Origin: Vicinamibacterales bacterium
GTDB taxonomy: Bacteria > Acidobacteriota > Vicinamibacteria > Vicinamibacterales > UBA2999
Assembly: GCA_035649395.1 (NCBI GenBank)
Contig: DASRJR010000215.1
Location: forward strand, 2,318-66,317
Length of the DNA: 64,000 nt
Reading direction: 5' to 3'
Shown here in pieces: positions 45,114-54,306 of the stretch. Below the pieces are notes generated by a model. The model was not told the DNA's origin. It saw nothing but the letters and a program-made list of their open reading frames with translations, and ran no database searches. The number at the start of each line of letters is the position of its first letter. The first letter of the stretch is position 1. A program made the translations under genes and the position numbers.

Positions 45114-45193
45114 CGCGATCGGATCATCCAGGCGTCGCGGCGCACGGCCCCGGAGCTGCGGCGCCTGGTCCGATGCACCCCGAACAGGTTGCT

Positions 45194-46450
45194 GTGGCAG
45201 TCGATCTACCGGCGCTTCTCGATCGCGTCTACTACCGTTACCCGTCTTTCCTCATAGACGCTATTGCCGAGCACGAGCCGGGTCACCGGCTCGTGGCCGT
45301 CAAGAACGTCACCATCAACGAAGAGTTCTTCCAGGGCCACTTCCCAGGTTCCCCGCTGATGCCGGCGGTGTTGATGATCGAGGCGCTGACGCAAGTGGCG
45401 GCGGCATTGCTTCTGGAGCGTGTCGACGCGCCGCTCGCGGCGCGGGTGTGGCTCCGCGGCGTCAACAACGCCAAGTTCAGAACTCCCGTCGTGCCGGGCG
45501 ACCGGCTGTATCTCGATGTCACCCTTGGGCGCGTGCGCTCGCGTCTTGCGACGGCCCAGGCCTCGGCGGTCGTCAACGGGCAACTGGCGGCCGAGGCCGA
45601 GCTGTTACTCGGGATTGAGCCTCCCCAGGCCACGATCGACCCCACGGCCCACGTTCACGCGGGTGCGGTCGTGGGCGAGGGCACGACGATTGGCCCACAT
45701 GCGGTCATCGGCCCTGATGTCCGTGTCGGCACGCACTGCCAGATCGGCGCCTCGGTCGTGATCGAAGGGTGGACGGAGATCGGCGACGGAACACAGATCT
45801 ATCCGATGGCCTCGATCGGCCTCGCGCCGCAGGATCTGAAATACCGCGGAGAGCGGACCAAGCTGATCGTCGGCCGCAACAACATCTTCCGCGAGTTCGT
45901 CACGATCAACCGCGGAACGATGGGCGGCGGCGGCGAGACGACGATTGGTGACGACAATCTGTTCATGGCGTACGTGCATGTCGCCCACGACTGCCATATC
46001 GGCAGCCACACCATCTTTGGCCCCCACGCCACGCTCGGTGGGCACGTGCACGTCGAGGACTTCGCCAACGTGAGCGCCGGATCGGCCGTGCATCAGTTCT
46101 GCCGCGTCGGCAAGCACGGGTTCATCGGCGGCTACTCGGTGGTCACGAAGGACGCGTTGCCGTTCGGCCGCACGATCGGCAGCCGGCCCGCGCGCATCTT
46201 CGGCGTCAACACGATCGGGTTGTCGCGCCGCGGGTTCACGCCGGCGACCATCAGCCAGCTGCGCTCGGCGTTTAGGTATCTGCTGCAGTCCAAGCTGAAC
46301 ACGACGCGGGCACTGGTGACGATCGAGCAGGACAAGTCGTTGTCGGCGCCGGAGATTCACTATCTGGTCGACTTCATCCGCCACTCGCAGCGCGGGGTCA
46401 TCCTCCGGCGACCGACACGCCGCGCCGAGGAGCTCGTGGCCGACGAGTAG
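45194..46450 (+). CDS. lpxA: Fused FabZ 3-hydroxyacyl-ACP dehydratase and LpxA UDP-GlcNAc acyltransferase (start 45173 or 45194)
   Basis: N-part KNVTINEEFFQGHFP..PLMPAVLMIEA, KFRTPVVPGD; C-part hexapeptide repeats, PQDLKY, HVAHDC, HQF; no internal stop. Confidence 0.93.
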   Translation: MAVDLPALLDRVYYRYPSFLIDAIAEHEPGHRLVAVKNVTINEEFFQGHFPGSPLMPAVLMIEALTQVAAALLLERVDAPLAARVWLRGVNNAKFRTPVVPGDRLYLDVTLGRVRSRLATAQASAVVNGQLAAEAELLLGIEPPQATIDPTAHVHAGAVVGEGTTIGPHAVIGPDVRVGTHCQIGASVVIEGWTEIGDGTQIYPMASIGLAPQDLKYRGERTKLIVGRNNIFREFVTINRGTMGGGGETTIGDDNLFMAYVHVAHDCHIGSHTIFGPHATLGGHVHVEDFANVSAGSAVHQFCRVGKHGFIGGYSVVTKDALPFGRTIGSRPARIFGVNTIGLSRRGFTPATISQLRSAFRYLLQSKLNTTRALVTIEQDKSLSAPEIHYLVDFIRHSQRGVILRRPTRRAEELVADE

Positions 46451-48291: not shown

Positions 48292-49191
48292 ATGAACACA
48301 TCGACGACGTTCGACCGTTACATGGAGCGCATCGAGGCCGGCGAGGCGCTGGCGCCCGCCGAAATCCAGGAGCTGGCAACGACGCCTGACATCCTGCCGC
48401 TCGGCATGTTGGCCGATACCTGGCGCCGACGGCGCTCTGGCGCGCGCGCCACCTTTCTGCGTGTTGAAACCGTCCCGATCGATGCGGCGTTCGACGAGCC
48501 GCTGCCGCCGATGGCGCGTGAGATCAGGATTACGGGTTCGCCAGTGGACTTGCCATCGGCCGTCACGAGCGTGTCTCGCGCGAAGACGGCGGCAGGGGAG
48601 CGCACGGTGTCCGCTTTCTCGTGGAGCGACGTCGAACGCCTCGGCGACGGTGAGTCTGGCGGGGTTGCCGGAGTGTTGACGTCGTTGCGTGCCGCCGGCC
48701 TCGATTCGATCGCCGATCTGCCGATGGACCGGATCGCCGATCTCGACGCGGCCGTTCGCGATCTCGTGACGGCGGGGTTCAGTCGTCTGCGTCTGACGAT
48801 CGACAAGCTGGCCGCGGCCGACCGTACGGGGCTGTTCGTCCGCGCCAGCCACCTGCACGAACGCTACGCCTGTATCCAGTTGATCAGCCCACTGCCGATG
48901 ACGCTCGCAACGTTTCGCCCTACCACCGGTTACGAGGACGTGAAGACCGTAGCGATCGCGCGGCTTGCCGCGCCTGAGGTGCCGAGCATCCAAGTCGATT
49001 GGCAGCGATACGGGCCCAAGTTGGCGCAGGTCGCGCTGACGTTTGGCGCCGACGACATCGACGGGATTTCCGCCTCGGAGGACGCCCCCGCGGGGAGGCG
49101 CCGAGCGCCGCTCGAGGAGATTCGTCGCAACATCGAGGCCGCCGGCTACACCCCGGTCGAGCGTGACGGCCGGTTCGCCCCACTCGCCTGA
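48292..49191 (+). CDS. MqnE/CofH-like protein lacking the radical-SAM CxxxCxxC motif
   Basis: Aligns by eye with the MqnC in this window (AAGLDSI; TTGYEDVKTVAIARL; AQVALTFGADDIDG; NIEAAGYTPVERD) but contains only one Cys. Confidence 0.8.
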   Translation: MNTSTTFDRYMERIEAGEALAPAEIQELATTPDILPLGMLADTWRRRRSGARATFLRVETVPIDAAFDEPLPPMAREIRITGSPVDLPSAVTSVSRAKTAAGERTVSAFSWSDVERLGDGESGGVAGVLTSLRAAGLDSIADLPMDRIADLDAAVRDLVTAGFSRLRLTIDKLAAADRTGLFVRASHLHERYACIQLISPLPMTLATFRPTTGYEDVKTVAIARLAAPEVPSIQVDWQRYGPKLAQVALTFGADDIDGISASEDAPAGRRRAPLEEIRRNIEAAGYTPVERDGRFAPLA

Positions 49192-50006
49192 TGCCGGCTT
49201 CGGTCGAACACACGCGGCGGCCGCTGCGCATTGGTGCGGTCGGCTATCTGAACGCACGACCGTTGACGTGGGCACTCGATCGCGAGCCGTCACGCTGGCG
49301 AGTTCGCTACGACGTGCCATCGGTGTGTGCCTCGCTGCTGCACGCCGATGAGGTCGACCTGGGTCTCGTACCGTCCGTGGAGTACCTGCAGTCACCGGAC
49401 TATCGGATGATTCCGGGTGTCGGCGTCGGCTCGCGCGGGCCGATCGCTTCAGTCGCGCTCTATACGACTCGGCCGGTTGCCGACGTCAGATCGATTGCGC
49501 TCGACACGAGCTCGCGAACATCCGTGGCACTCATCCAGGTGCTATGCCACCACCACTTTCGGATTCGCCCGGAATTCGTCTCACACCGGCCCGACCTTGC
49601 CGCGATGGTGCGGGCCGCCGACGCGGCGCTGCTGATCGGCGATCCTGCGTTCGATGCCGAGCACGAGGCGCTCGGACTGCAGAAGGTCGATTTGGGCGAG
49701 GAATGGACTCGGCTGAGCGGTCTGCCGTTCATCTATGCGGCGTGGACCGGGCGGACCGGTGTTGCAGATGCCGCGGATGTCAGCGCGTTGCAGGAGGCGC
49801 AGGCCGAAGGTGTCCGGGCGTCCGAGGCGATCGCCGCCGAATACGGGCGCGGCGATGCGAGGCGCACGGCCAGAGCCGCAGCGTACCTAAGGGATAATGT
49901 GAAATACGGTATCGGAGCGGATGAAGCCCGAGGACTGCAGTTGTTCCTGGACTACGCCGCGGATCTCGGCTTGGCTCCGGCACGCCGACGGCTGGAATTC
50001 TTCTGA
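49191..50006 (+). CDS. mqnA: Chorismate dehydratase MqnA (futalosine pathway)
   Basis: IGAVGYLNARPL, SSRTSV, LLIGD.A, DLGEEW, LPFIYAAW. Confidence 0.9.
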   Translation: MPASVEHTRRPLRIGAVGYLNARPLTWALDREPSRWRVRYDVPSVCASLLHADEVDLGLVPSVEYLQSPDYRMIPGVGVGSRGPIASVALYTTRPVADVRSIALDTSSRTSVALIQVLCHHHFRIRPEFVSHRPDLAAMVRAADAALLIGDPAFDAEHEALGLQKVDLGEEWTRLSGLPFIYAAWTGRTGVADAADVSALQEAQAEGVRASEAIAAEYGRGDARRTARAAAYLRDNVKYGIGADEARGLQLFLDYAADLGLAPARRRLEFF

Positions 50007-50104: not shown

Positions 50105-51307
50105 ATGATCGATACGATTGCCAAGAAGGTGCTTGACGGCGGCCGAGTCGACGCCGGTGAGGCGCTGCACCTCTATCGTCACGCGCCGACACACCTGCTC
50201 GGTCACCTCGCCGACGCCATCCGCGTCCGCAAGCACCCCGAGGGCATCGTCACCTACATCATCGACCGCAACGTCAACTACACGAATATCTGCGTCGCCA
50301 GGTGCAACTTCTGCGCGTTCTATCGCCCGGTCGGCTCCAGCGACGGGTACGTCCTCGGCTTCGACGAGATTTTCCAGAAGATCGACGAGACCATCGCCGT
50401 TGGCGGCAACCAACTGCTGCTGCAGGGTGGCCACAACCCCGACCTGCCGATTCAGTGGTACGAGGACTTGTTCCGCGCGGTGAAGGCGCGCTATCCCGAG
50501 TTCAAGCTGCACGCGCTGTCGCCACCTGAAGTGCTGCACATCGCCCGTTTGAATCGGGTCGCGGTGCCGACGGTCATCGAACGCCTGGTTGCGGCCGGTC
50601 TCGACAGCATCCCGGGAGGCGGCGCGGAGATTCTGGTCGATCGCGTACGCACGCTGTTGAACTGCTACAGCAAGGCGACGTCCGACGAGTGGATCGACGT
50701 GATGCGTGAGGCGCACAACGCCGGACTTCGGACGACGGCGACGATGATGTATGGGACGGTCGAGACCGATGAGGAGCGCATTGAGCACATGATGCGTCTG
50801 CGCGATCTCCAGGACGAGACCGCTGGCTTCACCGCGTTCATCACCTGGAGCTACCAGCCGGAGCACACCGAGCACGGCGGCTACGAAGCGACCGGCATCG
50901 ACTACCTTCGCACCCTGGCGCTGTCGCGGATCGTCCTCGACAACTTCGACAACGTGCAAGCGTCGTGGGTCACGCAGGGCGGAAAGGTCGGGCAGCTCAG
51001 TCTCGCCTACGGCGCCAACGACATGGGCAGCGTGATGATCGAAGAGAACGTCGTGCGCGCGGCCGGCGCCAGTTACTGCATGGACGAGCTCGAGATCGTC
51101 GTCAACATCGAGGACGCCGGCTTCACGCCCAAGCGGCGCAACATGCATTACGAGATCCTCGGAGATCCGATCTTCCGCGACCGCGAGGTCCCGCGCATGC
51201 TGTCGCTCGCGACCGCGCGCGCCGACGGTGACACGTCGGTCCCGGAGGAGCTGCGCAACTACCAGGCTCGCAGCCGGGCGGGCAAGACGCTTCGGCTCGC
51301 AGAATAG
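50105..51307 (+). CDS. mqnC: Cyclic dehypoxanthine futalosine synthase MqnC
   Basis: YIIDRNVNYTNICVARCNFCAF, PGGGAEIL, QASWVTQG, GANDMGSVMIEENVV. Confidence 0.93.
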   Translation: MIDTIAKKVLDGGRVDAGEALHLYRHAPTHLLGHLADAIRVRKHPEGIVTYIIDRNVNYTNICVARCNFCAFYRPVGSSDGYVLGFDEIFQKIDETIAVGGNQLLLQGGHNPDLPIQWYEDLFRAVKARYPEFKLHALSPPEVLHIARLNRVAVPTVIERLVAAGLDSIPGGGAEILVDRVRTLLNCYSKATSDEWIDVMREAHNAGLRTTATMMYGTVETDEERIEHMMRLRDLQDETAGFTAFITWSYQPEHTEHGGYEATGIDYLRTLALSRIVLDNFDNVQASWVTQGGKVGQLSLAYGANDMGSVMIEENVVRAAGASYCMDELEIVVNIEDAGFTPKRRNMHYEILGDPIFRDREVPRMLSLATARADGDTSVPEELRNYQARSRAGKTLRLAE

Positions 51308-51325: not shown

Positions 51326-52597
51326 ATGTCGGACGCGCCCCCGCTGACAGTCAAGGCGCAGTGGGTCGTACCGATTGCACGAGCGCCGATCCGTAACGGC
51401 TTTGTCACCATCGGCGGGAACGACCGCATTCAGTCTGTTGATTCGAGCATCCCCGAACCTGGCGGGGTAGTCGATCTCGGCCGGGTCGTGCTGTTGCCGG
51501 CTCTCGTCAACGCGCACACGCATCTGGAGCTGTCGTATCTGCGCGGGAGTGTGCCGCCCAGCGGGAGCTTCAACGAGTGGGTGTCTGATTTGATGTCGCG
51601 GCGTCGCGCCTGGCCCGACCCGGCGGCACCAGCGATTCTCGAAGCGGCTCGCCAGGCGATCGACGAAGCACACCGCTCCGGAACCGGTGTCATCGGCGAC
51701 ATCAGCAACACGCTGGTCACCGTCGACCTGCTCAGAGACGCGAGAATGGCGGCGCACGTCTTCTACGAGCAGCTCGGGTTCAACATCCCGGATGCCGCCG
51801 CCAAAGTCGCCGGGGCCAGGGACGCGATCGCGATGACAGTCACTGGCGACGACCGGATTCGCCTCAGCCTTGCGCCCCACGCACCGTACTCAGTCTCGCC
51901 GGAGCTGTTTCACGCGATTCGAGCCGACGTCGACGCGGCTCCGCATCCCCTCACGACCGTGCATCTGGGTGAATCACCGCAGGAGATCCAACTGTTGCGA
52001 GATGGCACGGGAGCCACGCGCGTCATGCTCGAGCGGCTCGGCGTGTGGACGGATGAGTGGAAGCCGCCTGGCGTCTCGCCGGTCACGTACCTCGCCGACC
52101 TCGGATTCCTCGATGCGCGCACGCTCGTCGTGCATGGCGTGCAGTTCGACTCGGCTGACCTCGCCAAGCTGCGCACGATCGGCGCGACGCTCGTCTCGTG
52201 CCCGAGGAGCAACGTGTATGTCGGCGTCGGATCGCCGCCACTCCAGTCGTTCTATGACGCGGGTGTGCCGGTGGCGTTCGGCACTGACAGCCTCGCGAGT
52301 GTTGCCGATCTCAACATGTTCAACGAGCTGGCCGAGGCGCGGCGAATTGCGCCTGGGGTACCGGCGCGGCGGCTGCTGGAAAGCGCGACGCTGACGGGCG
52401 CCCGAGCGCTCGGTTTCGCGAGCGATTTCGGCAGTGTGGACGTCGGCAAGCGTGCGGTGTTTTCAGTGGTGAGAATGCCGCGCCGAGCCGTGCGTGATGT
52501 GGAAGAATTTCTTGTGAGTGGCATCGCAGCCGATGCCATCAGGCCGTTCGACCTGTCGGCGCGCATGAATTCGGCCGTCGTGGACAGGCCGCAGTGA
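51326..52597 (+). CDS. Amidohydrolase, probable aminodeoxyfutalosine deaminase
   Basis: NAHTHLE, HAPYS, HLGES, VHGV, GTDS; located inside the mqn cluster. Confidence 0.75.
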   Translation: MSDAPPLTVKAQWVVPIARAPIRNGFVTIGGNDRIQSVDSSIPEPGGVVDLGRVVLLPALVNAHTHLELSYLRGSVPPSGSFNEWVSDLMSRRRAWPDPAAPAILEAARQAIDEAHRSGTGVIGDISNTLVTVDLLRDARMAAHVFYEQLGFNIPDAAAKVAGARDAIAMTVTGDDRIRLSLAPHAPYSVSPELFHAIRADVDAAPHPLTTVHLGESPQEIQLLRDGTGATRVMLERLGVWTDEWKPPGVSPVTYLADLGFLDARTLVVHGVQFDSADLAKLRTIGATLVSCPRSNVYVGVGSPPLQSFYDAGVPVAFGTDSLASVADLNMFNELAEARRIAPGVPARRLLESATLTGARALGFASDFGSVDVGKRAVFSVVRMPRRAVRDVEEFLVSGIAADAIRPFDLSARMNSAVVDRPQ

Positions 52598-53448
52598 TGA
52601 GCACGCTCGCGACATACCTCTCATTCGTTCGTTTCAGCCATTCGGTGTTCGCCTTACCGTTTGCGCTGATCGGCGCGCTGCTGGCGTGGCGTGATCATCC
52701 GTTCTCGTGGACGCAGATCGGCTGGATCGTCGTCTGCATGGTCAGCGCCCGCAGCGCGGCGATGGGTTTCAACCGACTCGTCGACGCCCACGACGATGCC
52801 CTGAATCCACGTACGGCGATGCGCGAACTGCCACGGGGCGCGATGAGCCGCACGGATGCGATCCTGTTCGTCGTCATCGCGTCGACGATCTTCGTGCTGG
52901 CGGCCTCTCGTTTGAGCACGCTGTGCTTGCTGTTGTCGCCCCTGGCGCTCGCGATCGTGTTCTGGTACTCGTTGGCCAAACGCGTGACCGCGTACACGCA
53001 GTTGTTCCTCGGTCTTGCCATGGCGGTGGCGCCGGTCGGAGGCTGGCTGGCGGCCGGCGGCAGAGGGGGACTCGAGCCATGGTTGCTGGGTCTCGGGATC
53101 GGGTTGTGGGTTGGCGGCTTCGACATCCTCTACGCCTGTCAGGACGTCGACTTCGATCGCGGCCATGGCTTGCGCTCGATCCCCACGCGATTCGGCGTCG
53201 CGAGGTCGATCGCACTGTCACGTCTGATGCACGTCGGCGCCGTCGTGACGATGGCCGTGCTGTGGCAGGCCGCGCGCTTGCCGGCACTGTATCTGGCCGG
53301 CGTCGCGTGTGTGGCCGTTCTGCTGTTCTACGAGCAGTCGCTCGTCCGCGCCGACGACTTGTCGCAGGTGAAAAAGGCCTTCGATCTCAACGGGTGGGTC
53401 GGCATTATCTACTTCGCTGTCACGGCGCTCGCACTCTACATCGGCTAG
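52594..53448 (+). CDS. ubiA: UbiA-like prenyltransferase of the futalosine pathway (MqnP-type)
   Basis: FSHSVFALPF, ARSAAMGFNRLVD, NPRT..RELP, FDILYACQD. Confidence 0.9.
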   Translation: MMSTLATYLSFVRFSHSVFALPFALIGALLAWRDHPFSWTQIGWIVVCMVSARSAAMGFNRLVDAHDDALNPRTAMRELPRGAMSRTDAILFVVIASTIFVLAASRLSTLCLLLSPLALAIVFWYSLAKRVTAYTQLFLGLAMAVAPVGGWLAAGGRGGLEPWLLGLGIGLWVGGFDILYACQDVDFDRGHGLRSIPTRFGVARSIALSRLMHVGAVVTMAVLWQAARLPALYLAGVACVAVLLFYEQSLVRADDLSQVKKAFDLNGWVGIIYFAVTALALYIG

Positions 53449-53581
53449 CCACGGAGAACGTAGCCACGGAGGACACTAAGATCACGAAGCTTTGGCCACT
53501 AAGATCACGGAGAACACGAAACGAGATCCTTAGTGCTCTTAGTGTCCTCAGTGGCAATAATCTCCGTGTCCTCCGTGGCTA
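53446..53581. repeat. Inverted arrays of a 9-bp unit (CACGGAGRA/CACTAAGAT)
   Basis: GCCACGGAGGACACTAAGATCACGAAG (53463-53489) matches the reverse complement of 53529-53555 at 24/27; outer TAGCCACGGAG/CTCCGTGGCTA arms. Confidence 0.8.
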
Positions 53582-54306
53582 ACCTCACACCGGACAAGAC
53601 GCCCGAGCGCATCGCGGGGATGTTCGACGCGATCGCCCCGCGCTACGACCTGCTGAATCATCTGCTGAGCGCCGGCATCGATCGGCGGTGGCGGCGAGAG
53701 GCGATTGCCTCGCTGCAGCTCTCCGGACGCGAAACGCTGATCGACGTCTGCACCGGGACGGCCGATGTCGCCCTCGAGGCGCGTGGGGCGCGTCGCATCC
53801 TGGGCATCGATTTCGCAGGAGAGATGCTGCGGCTGGGACTCGATAAGATCCGTGCGGCGCACCAGGCCCGACGCATCACGCTCGTCCGCGGCGATGCGAC
53901 CGCGATTCCCGCGCCCGACGCCTGCGCCGAGGCCGCCACGGTCGCCTTCGGCATACGCAATGTAGAGCATCCCGATCGCGCCTGCGTCGAGTTGGCGCGC
54001 GTGCTTCGCCCTGGCGGGCGGCTGGCGATTCTGGAGTTTGGCGTGCCGAGGATTCCGGGGATTAGCGCTGTCTACCTCTGGTACTTCAGGAACATCTTGC
54101 CCCGAATTGGCCGACTCATTTCGGGGCACATGGGCGCCTACTCGTATCTGCCGGCGTCGGTGACCACGTTTCCCCCTGCAGCTGAGTTTGTGACAATACT
54201 GCGTCAATCCGGGTTTCACGACGTTCGCGCCGTCCCGCTGACGTTCGGCGTCGTCTATCTCTATACGGCAGTCAGGAATCAGGAGGCGGGAATCGGGAAT
54301 CAGTAG
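53575..54306 (+). CDS. ubiE: Demethylmenaquinone methyltransferase MenG/UbiE (start uncertain)
   Basis: MFDAIAPRYDLLNHLLS.G.D..WR, DVCTGT, AFGIRNV, RVLRPGG, AYSYLP.S. Confidence 0.92.
   Translation: MANLTPDKTPERIAGMFDAIAPRYDLLNHLLSAGIDRRWRREAIASLQLSGRETLIDVCTGTADVALEARGARRILGIDFAGEMLRLGLDKIRAAHQARRITLVRGDATAIPAPDACAEAATVAFGIRNVEHPDRACVELARVLRPGGRLAILEFGVPRIPGISAVYLWYFRNILPRIGRLISGHMGAYSYLPASVTTFPPAAEFVTILRQSGFHDVRAVPLTFGVVYLYTAVRNQEAGIGNQ

Follow-up and report, generated by a model that had tools for sequence, protein, structure and literature searches.

A cluster-less MqnE-derived protein encoded in the futalosine operon of Vicinamibacterales is a candidate non-catalytic subunit of MqnC

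Directly upstream of mqnA, in the futalosine operon of a Vicinamibacterales bacterium, lies an intact gene whose product (P0001, hereafter X) derives from the radical SAM enzyme MqnE, lacks the cluster site and evolves under purifying selection. From comparative sequence evidence and predicted structures, X is probably a non-catalytic subunit of MqnC that would stabilise or activate this enzyme within an undescribed MqnE-MqnC complex. An earlier note on the same DNA had offered a scaffold or hetero-oligomer partner, an intermediate carrier and a pathway regulator as possible roles. Of these the hetero-oligomer partner is best supported by the sequence comparisons, which favour MqnC over both MqnE and MqnA in that role: X stays beside mqnC where the other candidate partners are missing, and is therefore likely to be a non-catalytic MqnC subunit. 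Positions are given in the window, the whole stretch of 64,000 nucleotides that was analysed (Table 1).

Table 1. Positions of X, its segments and the genes downstream within the window
Feature	Position	Strand	Basis
X (P0001), MqnE-derived protein without cluster site, 299 aa, one Cys	48292..49191	+	Open reading frame, domain and model scores, structure prediction
X N-terminal helices, aa 6-49; also retained in dead copies of other phyla	48307..48438	+	Predicted structure, comparison
X shortened Cys-free loop, aa 58-75, at the place of CxxxCxxC in MqnE/MqnC	48463..48516	+	Alignment
TTGYED, aa 211-216; MqnC-adjacency signature, first half (retained in MqnC-adjacent MqnE, lost in stand-alone MqnE)	48922..48939	+	
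GPKLAQ, aa 241-246; second half of the MqnC-adjacency signature	49012..49029	+	
G-x-R-R loop, X-specific, aa 268-271; near-invariant in X, eroded in genus g5	49093..49104	+	
TGATG, overlap of X stop and mqnA start	49189..49193	+	
mqnA, chorismate dehydratase (PF02621)	49191..50006	+	
mqnC, intact radical SAM cyclase (TIGR03699, 482 bits, above cut-off); proposed partner of X	50105..51307	+	
Amidohydrolase, likely aminofutalosine deaminase; below family cut-offs	51326..52597	+	
UbiA-family prenyltransferase, likely MqnP	52594..53448	+	
UbiE/MenG methyltransferase	53533..54306	+	

Sequence, predicted fold and genomic setting of X

The reading frame of X is open throughout and its sole cysteine is residue 194, in agreement with the earlier description of an intact frame of about 300 aa with a single Cys. 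The same note had reported a shortened, Cys-free segment and the loss of PGGGAEI and ATMMYG, and the alignment bears this out: the cysteine-bearing stretch is ~31 residues shorter in X than in MqnE, and the columns of CxxxCxxC, GGG and TMLYGHxE have either been deleted or hold other residues. Among the columns that are invariant in MqnE, the glycine-rich segments, the three cysteines and most of TMLYGHxE are gone from X, which retains most of those that fall within the N-terminal helices or aa 200-255. X has neither the three-Cys [4Fe-4S] site of radical SAM enzymes nor the SAM-binding segments, which we take to be the GG after strand 2, GGGAE and TMxxGxxE; a Pfam scan returned no match to PF04055. 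The only Pfam family matched is PF19288 (CofH/MqnC C-terminal region; 34.2 bits versus a cut-off of 27, aa 211-295).

X scores below the curated cut-offs of both TIGR03700 (MqnE; 68.3 versus 434.55 bits) and TIGR03699 (MqnC; 64.9 versus 428.1 bits). Since these NCBIfam models barely separate MqnE from MqnC, the assignment to MqnE rests on operon position and on profile scores, the X profile giving medians of 124 bits for MqnE and 91 bits for MqnC. The MqnE-like character proposed earlier stands on those two grounds, but not on the NCBIfam scores by themselves. All four motif pairs said to be shared with MqnC are present in X and in the MqnC of the window. The claim that the two align along their whole length holds for a profile-profile comparison (295 columns, probability 99.8, E 8e-30) but not for BLASTP, in which only the last 91 aa align (32% identity, E 1e-11).

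The AlphaFold2 model of X, which used 41 homologues, is a complete barrel (pLDDT 94.4, pTM 0.91). The top PDB matches returned for it by Foldseek were structures of MqnE (PDB codes: 6XIG and 6XI9, TM 0.82), with HydG, HydE and ThiH also found, and the predicted fold is the TIM barrel of the BioB/ThiH/MqnE type. With a full barrel predicted and the cluster loop and SAM motifs absent, the retained non-catalytic barrel envisaged in the earlier note appears to be an apt description. Twenty-one columns are invariant among 41 X sequences at 36-72% identity, and columns conserved at >=80% number 42/100 in aa 200-299, 10/60 in aa 1-60 and 8/139 between. Near-invariant arginines that are specific to X (R57, R79, R167, R270 and R271) stand where the ancestral residues differed, E77, D236 and D257 are further new charged residues, and the new polar residues sit on barrel strands in the predicted model. 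No Cys column is conserved in the X family (at most 15% in any column).

The TGA/ATG overlap with mqnA was as previously noted (Table 1), and among 50 loci X is followed by mqnA at 49, in keeping with the proposed synteny, and directly by mqnC at one. X had also been described as leading the futalosine operon. It is indeed the first of the mqn genes, but lpxA-lpxI-gfo precede it by a 76-bp gap in which no terminator-like site was found, so X may not start the transcript; no promoter-like site was found near X. A search for RNA evidence listed 16 candidate runs, each with a small share of the sequence and none with half its words. Further upstream, a 425-aa ORF (window 45173-46450) appears from its sequence to be a FabZ-like domain fused to LpxA, in a bamA-skp-lpxA-lpxI cluster, and in several families (L059, L060, L070, L072, L074, L075 and L078) an additional ~1.5 kb separates X from the Gfo oxidoreductase gene. 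Downstream, aa 353-400 of MqnC (window 51164-51307) form a conserved ~45-aa C-terminal extension of the Vicinamibacterales protein. A similar tail is present in several of the dead MqnC remnants described below, and the extension may be an arm that grips the partner.

The earlier note had proposed looking for a separate mqnE, and an intact, triad-bearing MqnE (473 bits, above cut-off) is encoded on contig C280 of the same genome, which rules X out as the genome's only MqnE. The live gene lies ~7 kb from mqnB- and mqnD-like genes, and their presence excludes X as a replacement for a missing mqnB or mqnD. In total mqnA, mqnC, mqnE, mqnD- and mqnB-like genes, deaminase, prenyltransferase and methyltransferase are all present. 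The live mqnE (L001/L095) adjoins what by sequence are a tRNA-binding-domain gene and a cobalamin/iron-type ABC-transporter cluster.

Distribution, selection and descent of X

X was found in 276 of 301 Vicinamibacterales genomes (E<=1e-20), nearly always as a single match, and full-length MqnE in 257 of the 301. Twenty of the 25 X-negative genomes were searched for MqnC and MqnE: 17 had neither, two carry mqnC close to the beginning of a contig and the last carries MqnE alone. Both X and full-length MqnE are absent from family f7 (0/14 each), and in f7 and in some genomes of family f2 X, MqnC and MqnE were all not found. In a sample of the phylum, full-length X matches occurred in 27/27 other genomes of the order, and the remaining 273 genomes gave C-terminal matches at most, in 30 genomes; 16 such loci from outside the order encode 15 intact MqnE and one intact MqnC. 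Two unpublished genomes (G322 among the 301 and G356 in the phylum sample) enter these tallies only. The names of X homologues likewise point to Vicinamibacterales. Two loci titled Solibacteraceae and Bifidobacteriaceae (L111 and L118) have the order X-mqnA-mqnC and an MqnC that nests in Vicinamibacterales, and are probably from mislabelled bins.

The cysteine triad is found in 0/121 close homologues of X and in 0/88 full-length representatives of 50% clusters, so that a lesion confined to one strain, which the earlier note had wished to exclude, is excluded; many of the homologues are nonetheless labelled 'aminodeoxyfutalosine synthase' in their sources. Identity among X sequences drops to ~40% within the order. 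For 30 same-genus copies, dN/dS had a median of 0.28 and a maximum of 0.48 and lay below 1 in 404/404 usable pairs (of 435), values obtained by a simple counting method, close to saturation and among related genomes. By region the values were 0.30 (aa 1-60), 0.38 (aa 61-199) and 0.15 (aa 200-296), and mqnA gave 0.19 in the same comparison. The C-terminal third is thus well kept, as had been stated, by rate as well as by column conservation. X shows none of the stops, frameshifts or neutral evolution of a pseudogene, which upholds the earlier view that it is not decaying, and has the features of a pseudoenzyme, namely an intact gene, purifying selection and the loss of catalytic residues.

Descent from MqnE is indicated by the profile preference and by four outgroup loci (L083 and L084 of the sister order, L085 and L135) in which an intact mqnE occupies the operon place of X; the genomes concerned show a single MqnE and a single MqnC, with no dead copy. 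The X profile scores 151 and 138 bits on the operon MqnE of the sister order, 117 on that of L135, 107-135 on those of Myxococcota and 91-116 on the MqnE of its own order. Trees place X basal to MqnE, at the end of a very long branch. Two clade tests were completed and neither hypothesis was rejected: X with the sister-order copies (p-AU 0.60), which is the best tree with a log-likelihood 2.7 higher, and X with Myxococcota-type copies (p-AU 0.39); the dead copies of Myxococcota were left out of these trees and tests. The MqnC of the order groups with that of L135, L083 and L084 (SH-aLRT 96-97, in a quick tree leaving out 19 of 99 MqnC rows). The live MqnE of the order falls within the Myxococcota-type MqnE (100/100), where it is sister (98/95) to Myxococcota MqnE with a dead copy directly upstream, in a tree leaving out 13 MqnE rows. 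Given these different affinities, the live mqnE of Vicinamibacterales was likely imported. Some Acidobacteriota MqnE (L081, L091 and L093) have a longer cysteine spacing, CxxxxxCxxC.

Natural cases bearing on the partner of X

Several kinds of observation support MqnC as the partner, among them the dissociation seen in genus g5, the shared loss in 17 of 20 X-negative genomes, gene position, a parallel in Desulfitobacteriaceae and a reverse case in Myxococcota. Because X and mqnC are linked, their shared presence is partly a matter of linkage. In g5 (G039, G247, G832 and G833; loci L061, L105, L286 and L292-L300) mqnC follows X immediately, without an intervening mqnA, in 4/4 genomes, which are drafts of 82-100% completeness and represent one evolutionary event. 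An MqnA-like gene (32-36% identity) and a divergent MqnD-like gene lie elsewhere in the three genomes examined, and the genes downstream of mqnC are kept. No MqnE was found by the X profile or PF19288 in the four genomes, or by an MqnE protein query in three; the X profile is able to detect MqnE of the type sought (G051). The g5 copies of X retain TTGY.D and GPKLAQ, and dN is below dS in 6/6 pairs. Uptake, an unrelated enzyme or assembly gaps may account for the lack of an identified aminofutalosine synthase in these genomes. No MqnE was found either in five other X-positive genomes (G230, G098, G123, G132 and G056) in which mqnA is in place, and there assembly gaps can explain the absence.

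The Desulfitobacteriaceae, entered via L167, gave matches in 49 of 69 genomes. Of the best 30 loci, 28 have an internally deleted mqnE directly before mqnC and two an intact one. The deletion removes MqnE profile positions ~70-214 and leaves a half barrel of ~200-250 aa (L179-L205, L207; for example L167:2147-2893), which in one case shares a single reading frame with mqnC (L204/L271). These copies have a median dN/dS of 0.22, with 0/166 usable pairs at >=1 (27 copies, 351 pairs). A second full-length MqnE is encoded elsewhere in 18/20 genomes with the deleted copy and 10/10 with the intact copy. The dead gene adjoins mqnC only, and no mqnA was present in the loci examined.

Matches were obtained in 20 of 151 Myxococcota genomes. 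At eight of the 20 loci a dead MqnE-like gene is followed by live mqnE and then by mqnA::mqnC; at ten (L259-L268) live mqnE neighbours a fusion of mqnA with a dead MqnC remnant; at two both MqnE and MqnC are live. The remnants score weakly (7-59 bits). In nine of the ten genomes with dead MqnC, a divergent, triad-bearing MqnC-like gene is found elsewhere (L277-L285; 270-306 bits on the MqnC profile). An Atlas match to a Myxococcota cluster of ~197 aa scored 0.94, and dead MqnE-like genes of ~170-250 aa were seen directly upstream of live mqnE and mqnA::mqnC at L101, L102, L106, L107, L113, L124 and L209-L216. X and the dead copies of Desulfitobacteriaceae and Myxococcota keep the same parts, the N-terminal helices and the C-terminal third.

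A signature of three residues within the retained third (G213, D216 and K243; G, D and K/R) follows adjacency to MqnC in several groups. It is complete in 49/49 parsed X, in 19/19 dead and 10/10 live MqnC-adjacent MqnE of Desulfitobacteriaceae and in 11/13 other Acidobacteriota MqnE, and in 0/7 and 0/17 stand-alone live MqnE of two separate clades. The count took 19 of the 27 dead Desulfitobacteriaceae copies and 6 of the 10 MqnE beside dead MqnC, and 11/30, 24/120 and 1/50 sequences were unparsed. As a universal rule, however, the signature is counted against by the sequences of fusions, in which only 11/96 parsed MqnE halves have it complete, and of operon MqnE from other phyla (only 10/19 parsed).

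Fusions of the two enzymes are widespread. All 120 matches listed for a fusion query carry MqnE and MqnC domains, and they come from several phyla: 118 are MqnE-MqnC, one is MqnC-MqnE and one is MqnE-MqnA-MqnC (P0331). As the query was itself a fusion, this tally speaks to spread and not to frequency. The model of one fusion (P0380; pLDDT 93, pTM 0.92 over 721 aa) implies a fixed arrangement of the predicted MqnE and MqnC domains, and may echo a homodimer seen in training. Covariation was discarded as partner evidence. Among 155 natural MqnE-MqnC pairs one residue pair stood out, formed by the aromatic residues that precede GADD in the two proteins, but it fell to ranks 167 and 1921 after redundancy filtering and lay within the shuffled maxima; the top 40 pairs showed no enrichment in the retained half (11/40 versus an expected 0.28).

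A history consistent with these cases would start from an ancestral heterodimer of MqnE and MqnC held together via the N-terminal helices and the C-terminal third. A stand-alone MqnE would then have taken over aminofutalosine synthesis while the operon copy lost its chemistry, the dead copy X being retained because MqnC needs the partner surface. The X-specific arginine loop may also touch MqnA, MqnE or their anionic intermediate. Several points tell against or blur a simple MqnC scaffold. The whole barrel predicted for X and its new invariant charges are more than a bare scaffold obviously needs, and the position of the live MqnE as sister to MqnE with a dead upstream copy also fits X binding MqnE. 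Passages of two papers describe MqnE and MqnC as enzymes studied in vitro separately (PMC8210684, PMC9026282), which means that turnover does not strictly depend on a partner. The independent action reported for the two domains of the related fusion FbiC (PMC8498797) also weighs against the complex.

An unlikely alternative is that X acts as an adaptor or carrier, binding MqnA or its dicarboxylate product in an arginine-lined pocket and passing it to the distant MqnE. Overlap with mqnA by 1 or 4 bases at 35 of 48 measured loci would suit this, as would the near-invariant new arginines, the existence of the triple fusion and the erosion in g5 of the G-x-R-R loop, which is whole in only one of the four copies where the operon mqnA and MqnE are missing. 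Yet X is under selection in g5 with neither an adjacent mqnA nor a detectable MqnE, and the Desulfitobacteriaceae copies are half barrels from loci in which, as far as examined, mqnA is absent. Moreover, the new charges are mixed (they include E77, D236 and D257) and could be salt bridges filling an empty barrel, and the mqnA overlap may descend from an ancestral mqnE-mqnA junction such as that of L083-L085. An adaptor role could possibly exist alongside MqnC binding, as a second role.

Less probable again is a pairing of X, as the dead member, with the live MqnE of Myxococcota type, the two having arisen by duplication and been acquired together before the live gene moved away. The sister relationship of that MqnE to those with a dead copy directly upstream is what this would predict, and the grouping of X with Myxococcota-type copies was not rejected. 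But X is kept in the 4/4 g5 genomes in which MqnE is not detectable, it retains the TG..D/PK residues that are altered in the live MqnE clade, and both its profile and the best tree favour the sister-order operon MqnE over the MqnE of its own order or the Myxococcota type. A free-standing role for X, whether as an enzyme without radical chemistry or as a pathway regulator that senses metabolites, seems very improbable: the confidently predicted complete barrel with new polar residues on its strands would accommodate it, but no pathway step is missing in the genome, no Cys column is conserved and half-barrel equivalents are under selection in another phylum. The idea of X as a relic in slow decay, preserved solely by its overlap with mqnA, is scarcely credible, since the fast central region and the low identity within the order are outweighed by its presence in 276/301 genomes, the slow C-terminal third, the 21 invariant columns and its persistence in g5 where mqnA has moved, and the selection data contradict it.

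Relation to known systems and significance

Pseudoenzyme subunits that support an active paralogue include the AdoMetDC prozyme of trypanosomatids, plant PDX1.2 and Dph1-Dph2. X would resemble these in being a non-catalytic duplicate kept for contact with a related active enzyme, but their folds and pathways are unrelated; X would probably pair with another enzyme of its own pathway, and which of the two is dead differs by lineage. Compared with MqnE (TIGR03700; PDB codes: 6XI9 and 6XIG), X has the same predicted fold, operon position and C-terminal motifs, but is ~70 aa shorter, is without CxxxCxxC or SAM-binding segments and coexists with a separate live MqnE. MqnC (TIGR03699) is a paralogue two genes downstream that can be aligned with X over its whole length; unlike X it retains the triad, and the X profile scores MqnE above it. 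No structure of MqnC was found in PDB searches.

A related arrangement is that of FbiC, the CofG-CofH fusion of F420 synthesis, in which a single pathway likewise uses two radical SAM domains from the wider family that includes MqnE and MqnC. CofG and CofH are fused in some lineages, and the FbiC domains are both catalytic and reported to act independently (PMC8498797); the passages of that paper on FbiC mention no dead copy, a further difference from X. Ferredoxin interacts with MqnE and MqnC, and the passage on ferredoxin contains no test of an MqnE-MqnC interaction (PMC8144621). An mqnEAC operon is mentioned, together with MqnL, M, P and Z, in part of PMC4746308, and the main text of PMC13386864 names neither MqnE nor MqnC. 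According to passages of PMC13280913 and PMC9026282, many bacteria make their menaquinone by the futalosine route, which is under study as a target for narrow-spectrum antibiotics. A full-text literature search (titles and abstract openings, with most subscription papers outside its coverage) returned no description of a cluster-less MqnE or of an MqnE-MqnC complex. New here are the natural cases, which mark MqnC as the probable partner of X and suggest a general MqnE-MqnC complex.

It is conceivable, if somewhat short of probable, that MqnE and MqnC form a mutually dependent heterodimer in most bacteria and that, wherever a stand-alone copy assumed one of the two activities, the displaced subunit stayed on as a dead scaffold. 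This would have happened independently to MqnE in Vicinamibacterales (as a whole barrel) and in Desulfitobacteriaceae (as a half barrel), and in Myxococcota to MqnE at some loci and to MqnC at others; X would be an MqnC scaffold whose acquired arginine loop connects it with the opening reactions of the pathway. The homologues of X now called 'aminodeoxyfutalosine synthase' call for a corrected annotation, as they have no cluster site. The two radical enzymes of the futalosine pathway have so far been treated as separate proteins; if X is a subunit of MqnC, they would normally work as a pair. Should MqnC need an MqnE-type partner, co-expression would be a route to active MqnC, and the interface would be a new point of inhibition, with the dead copies marking the interface half of the barrel.
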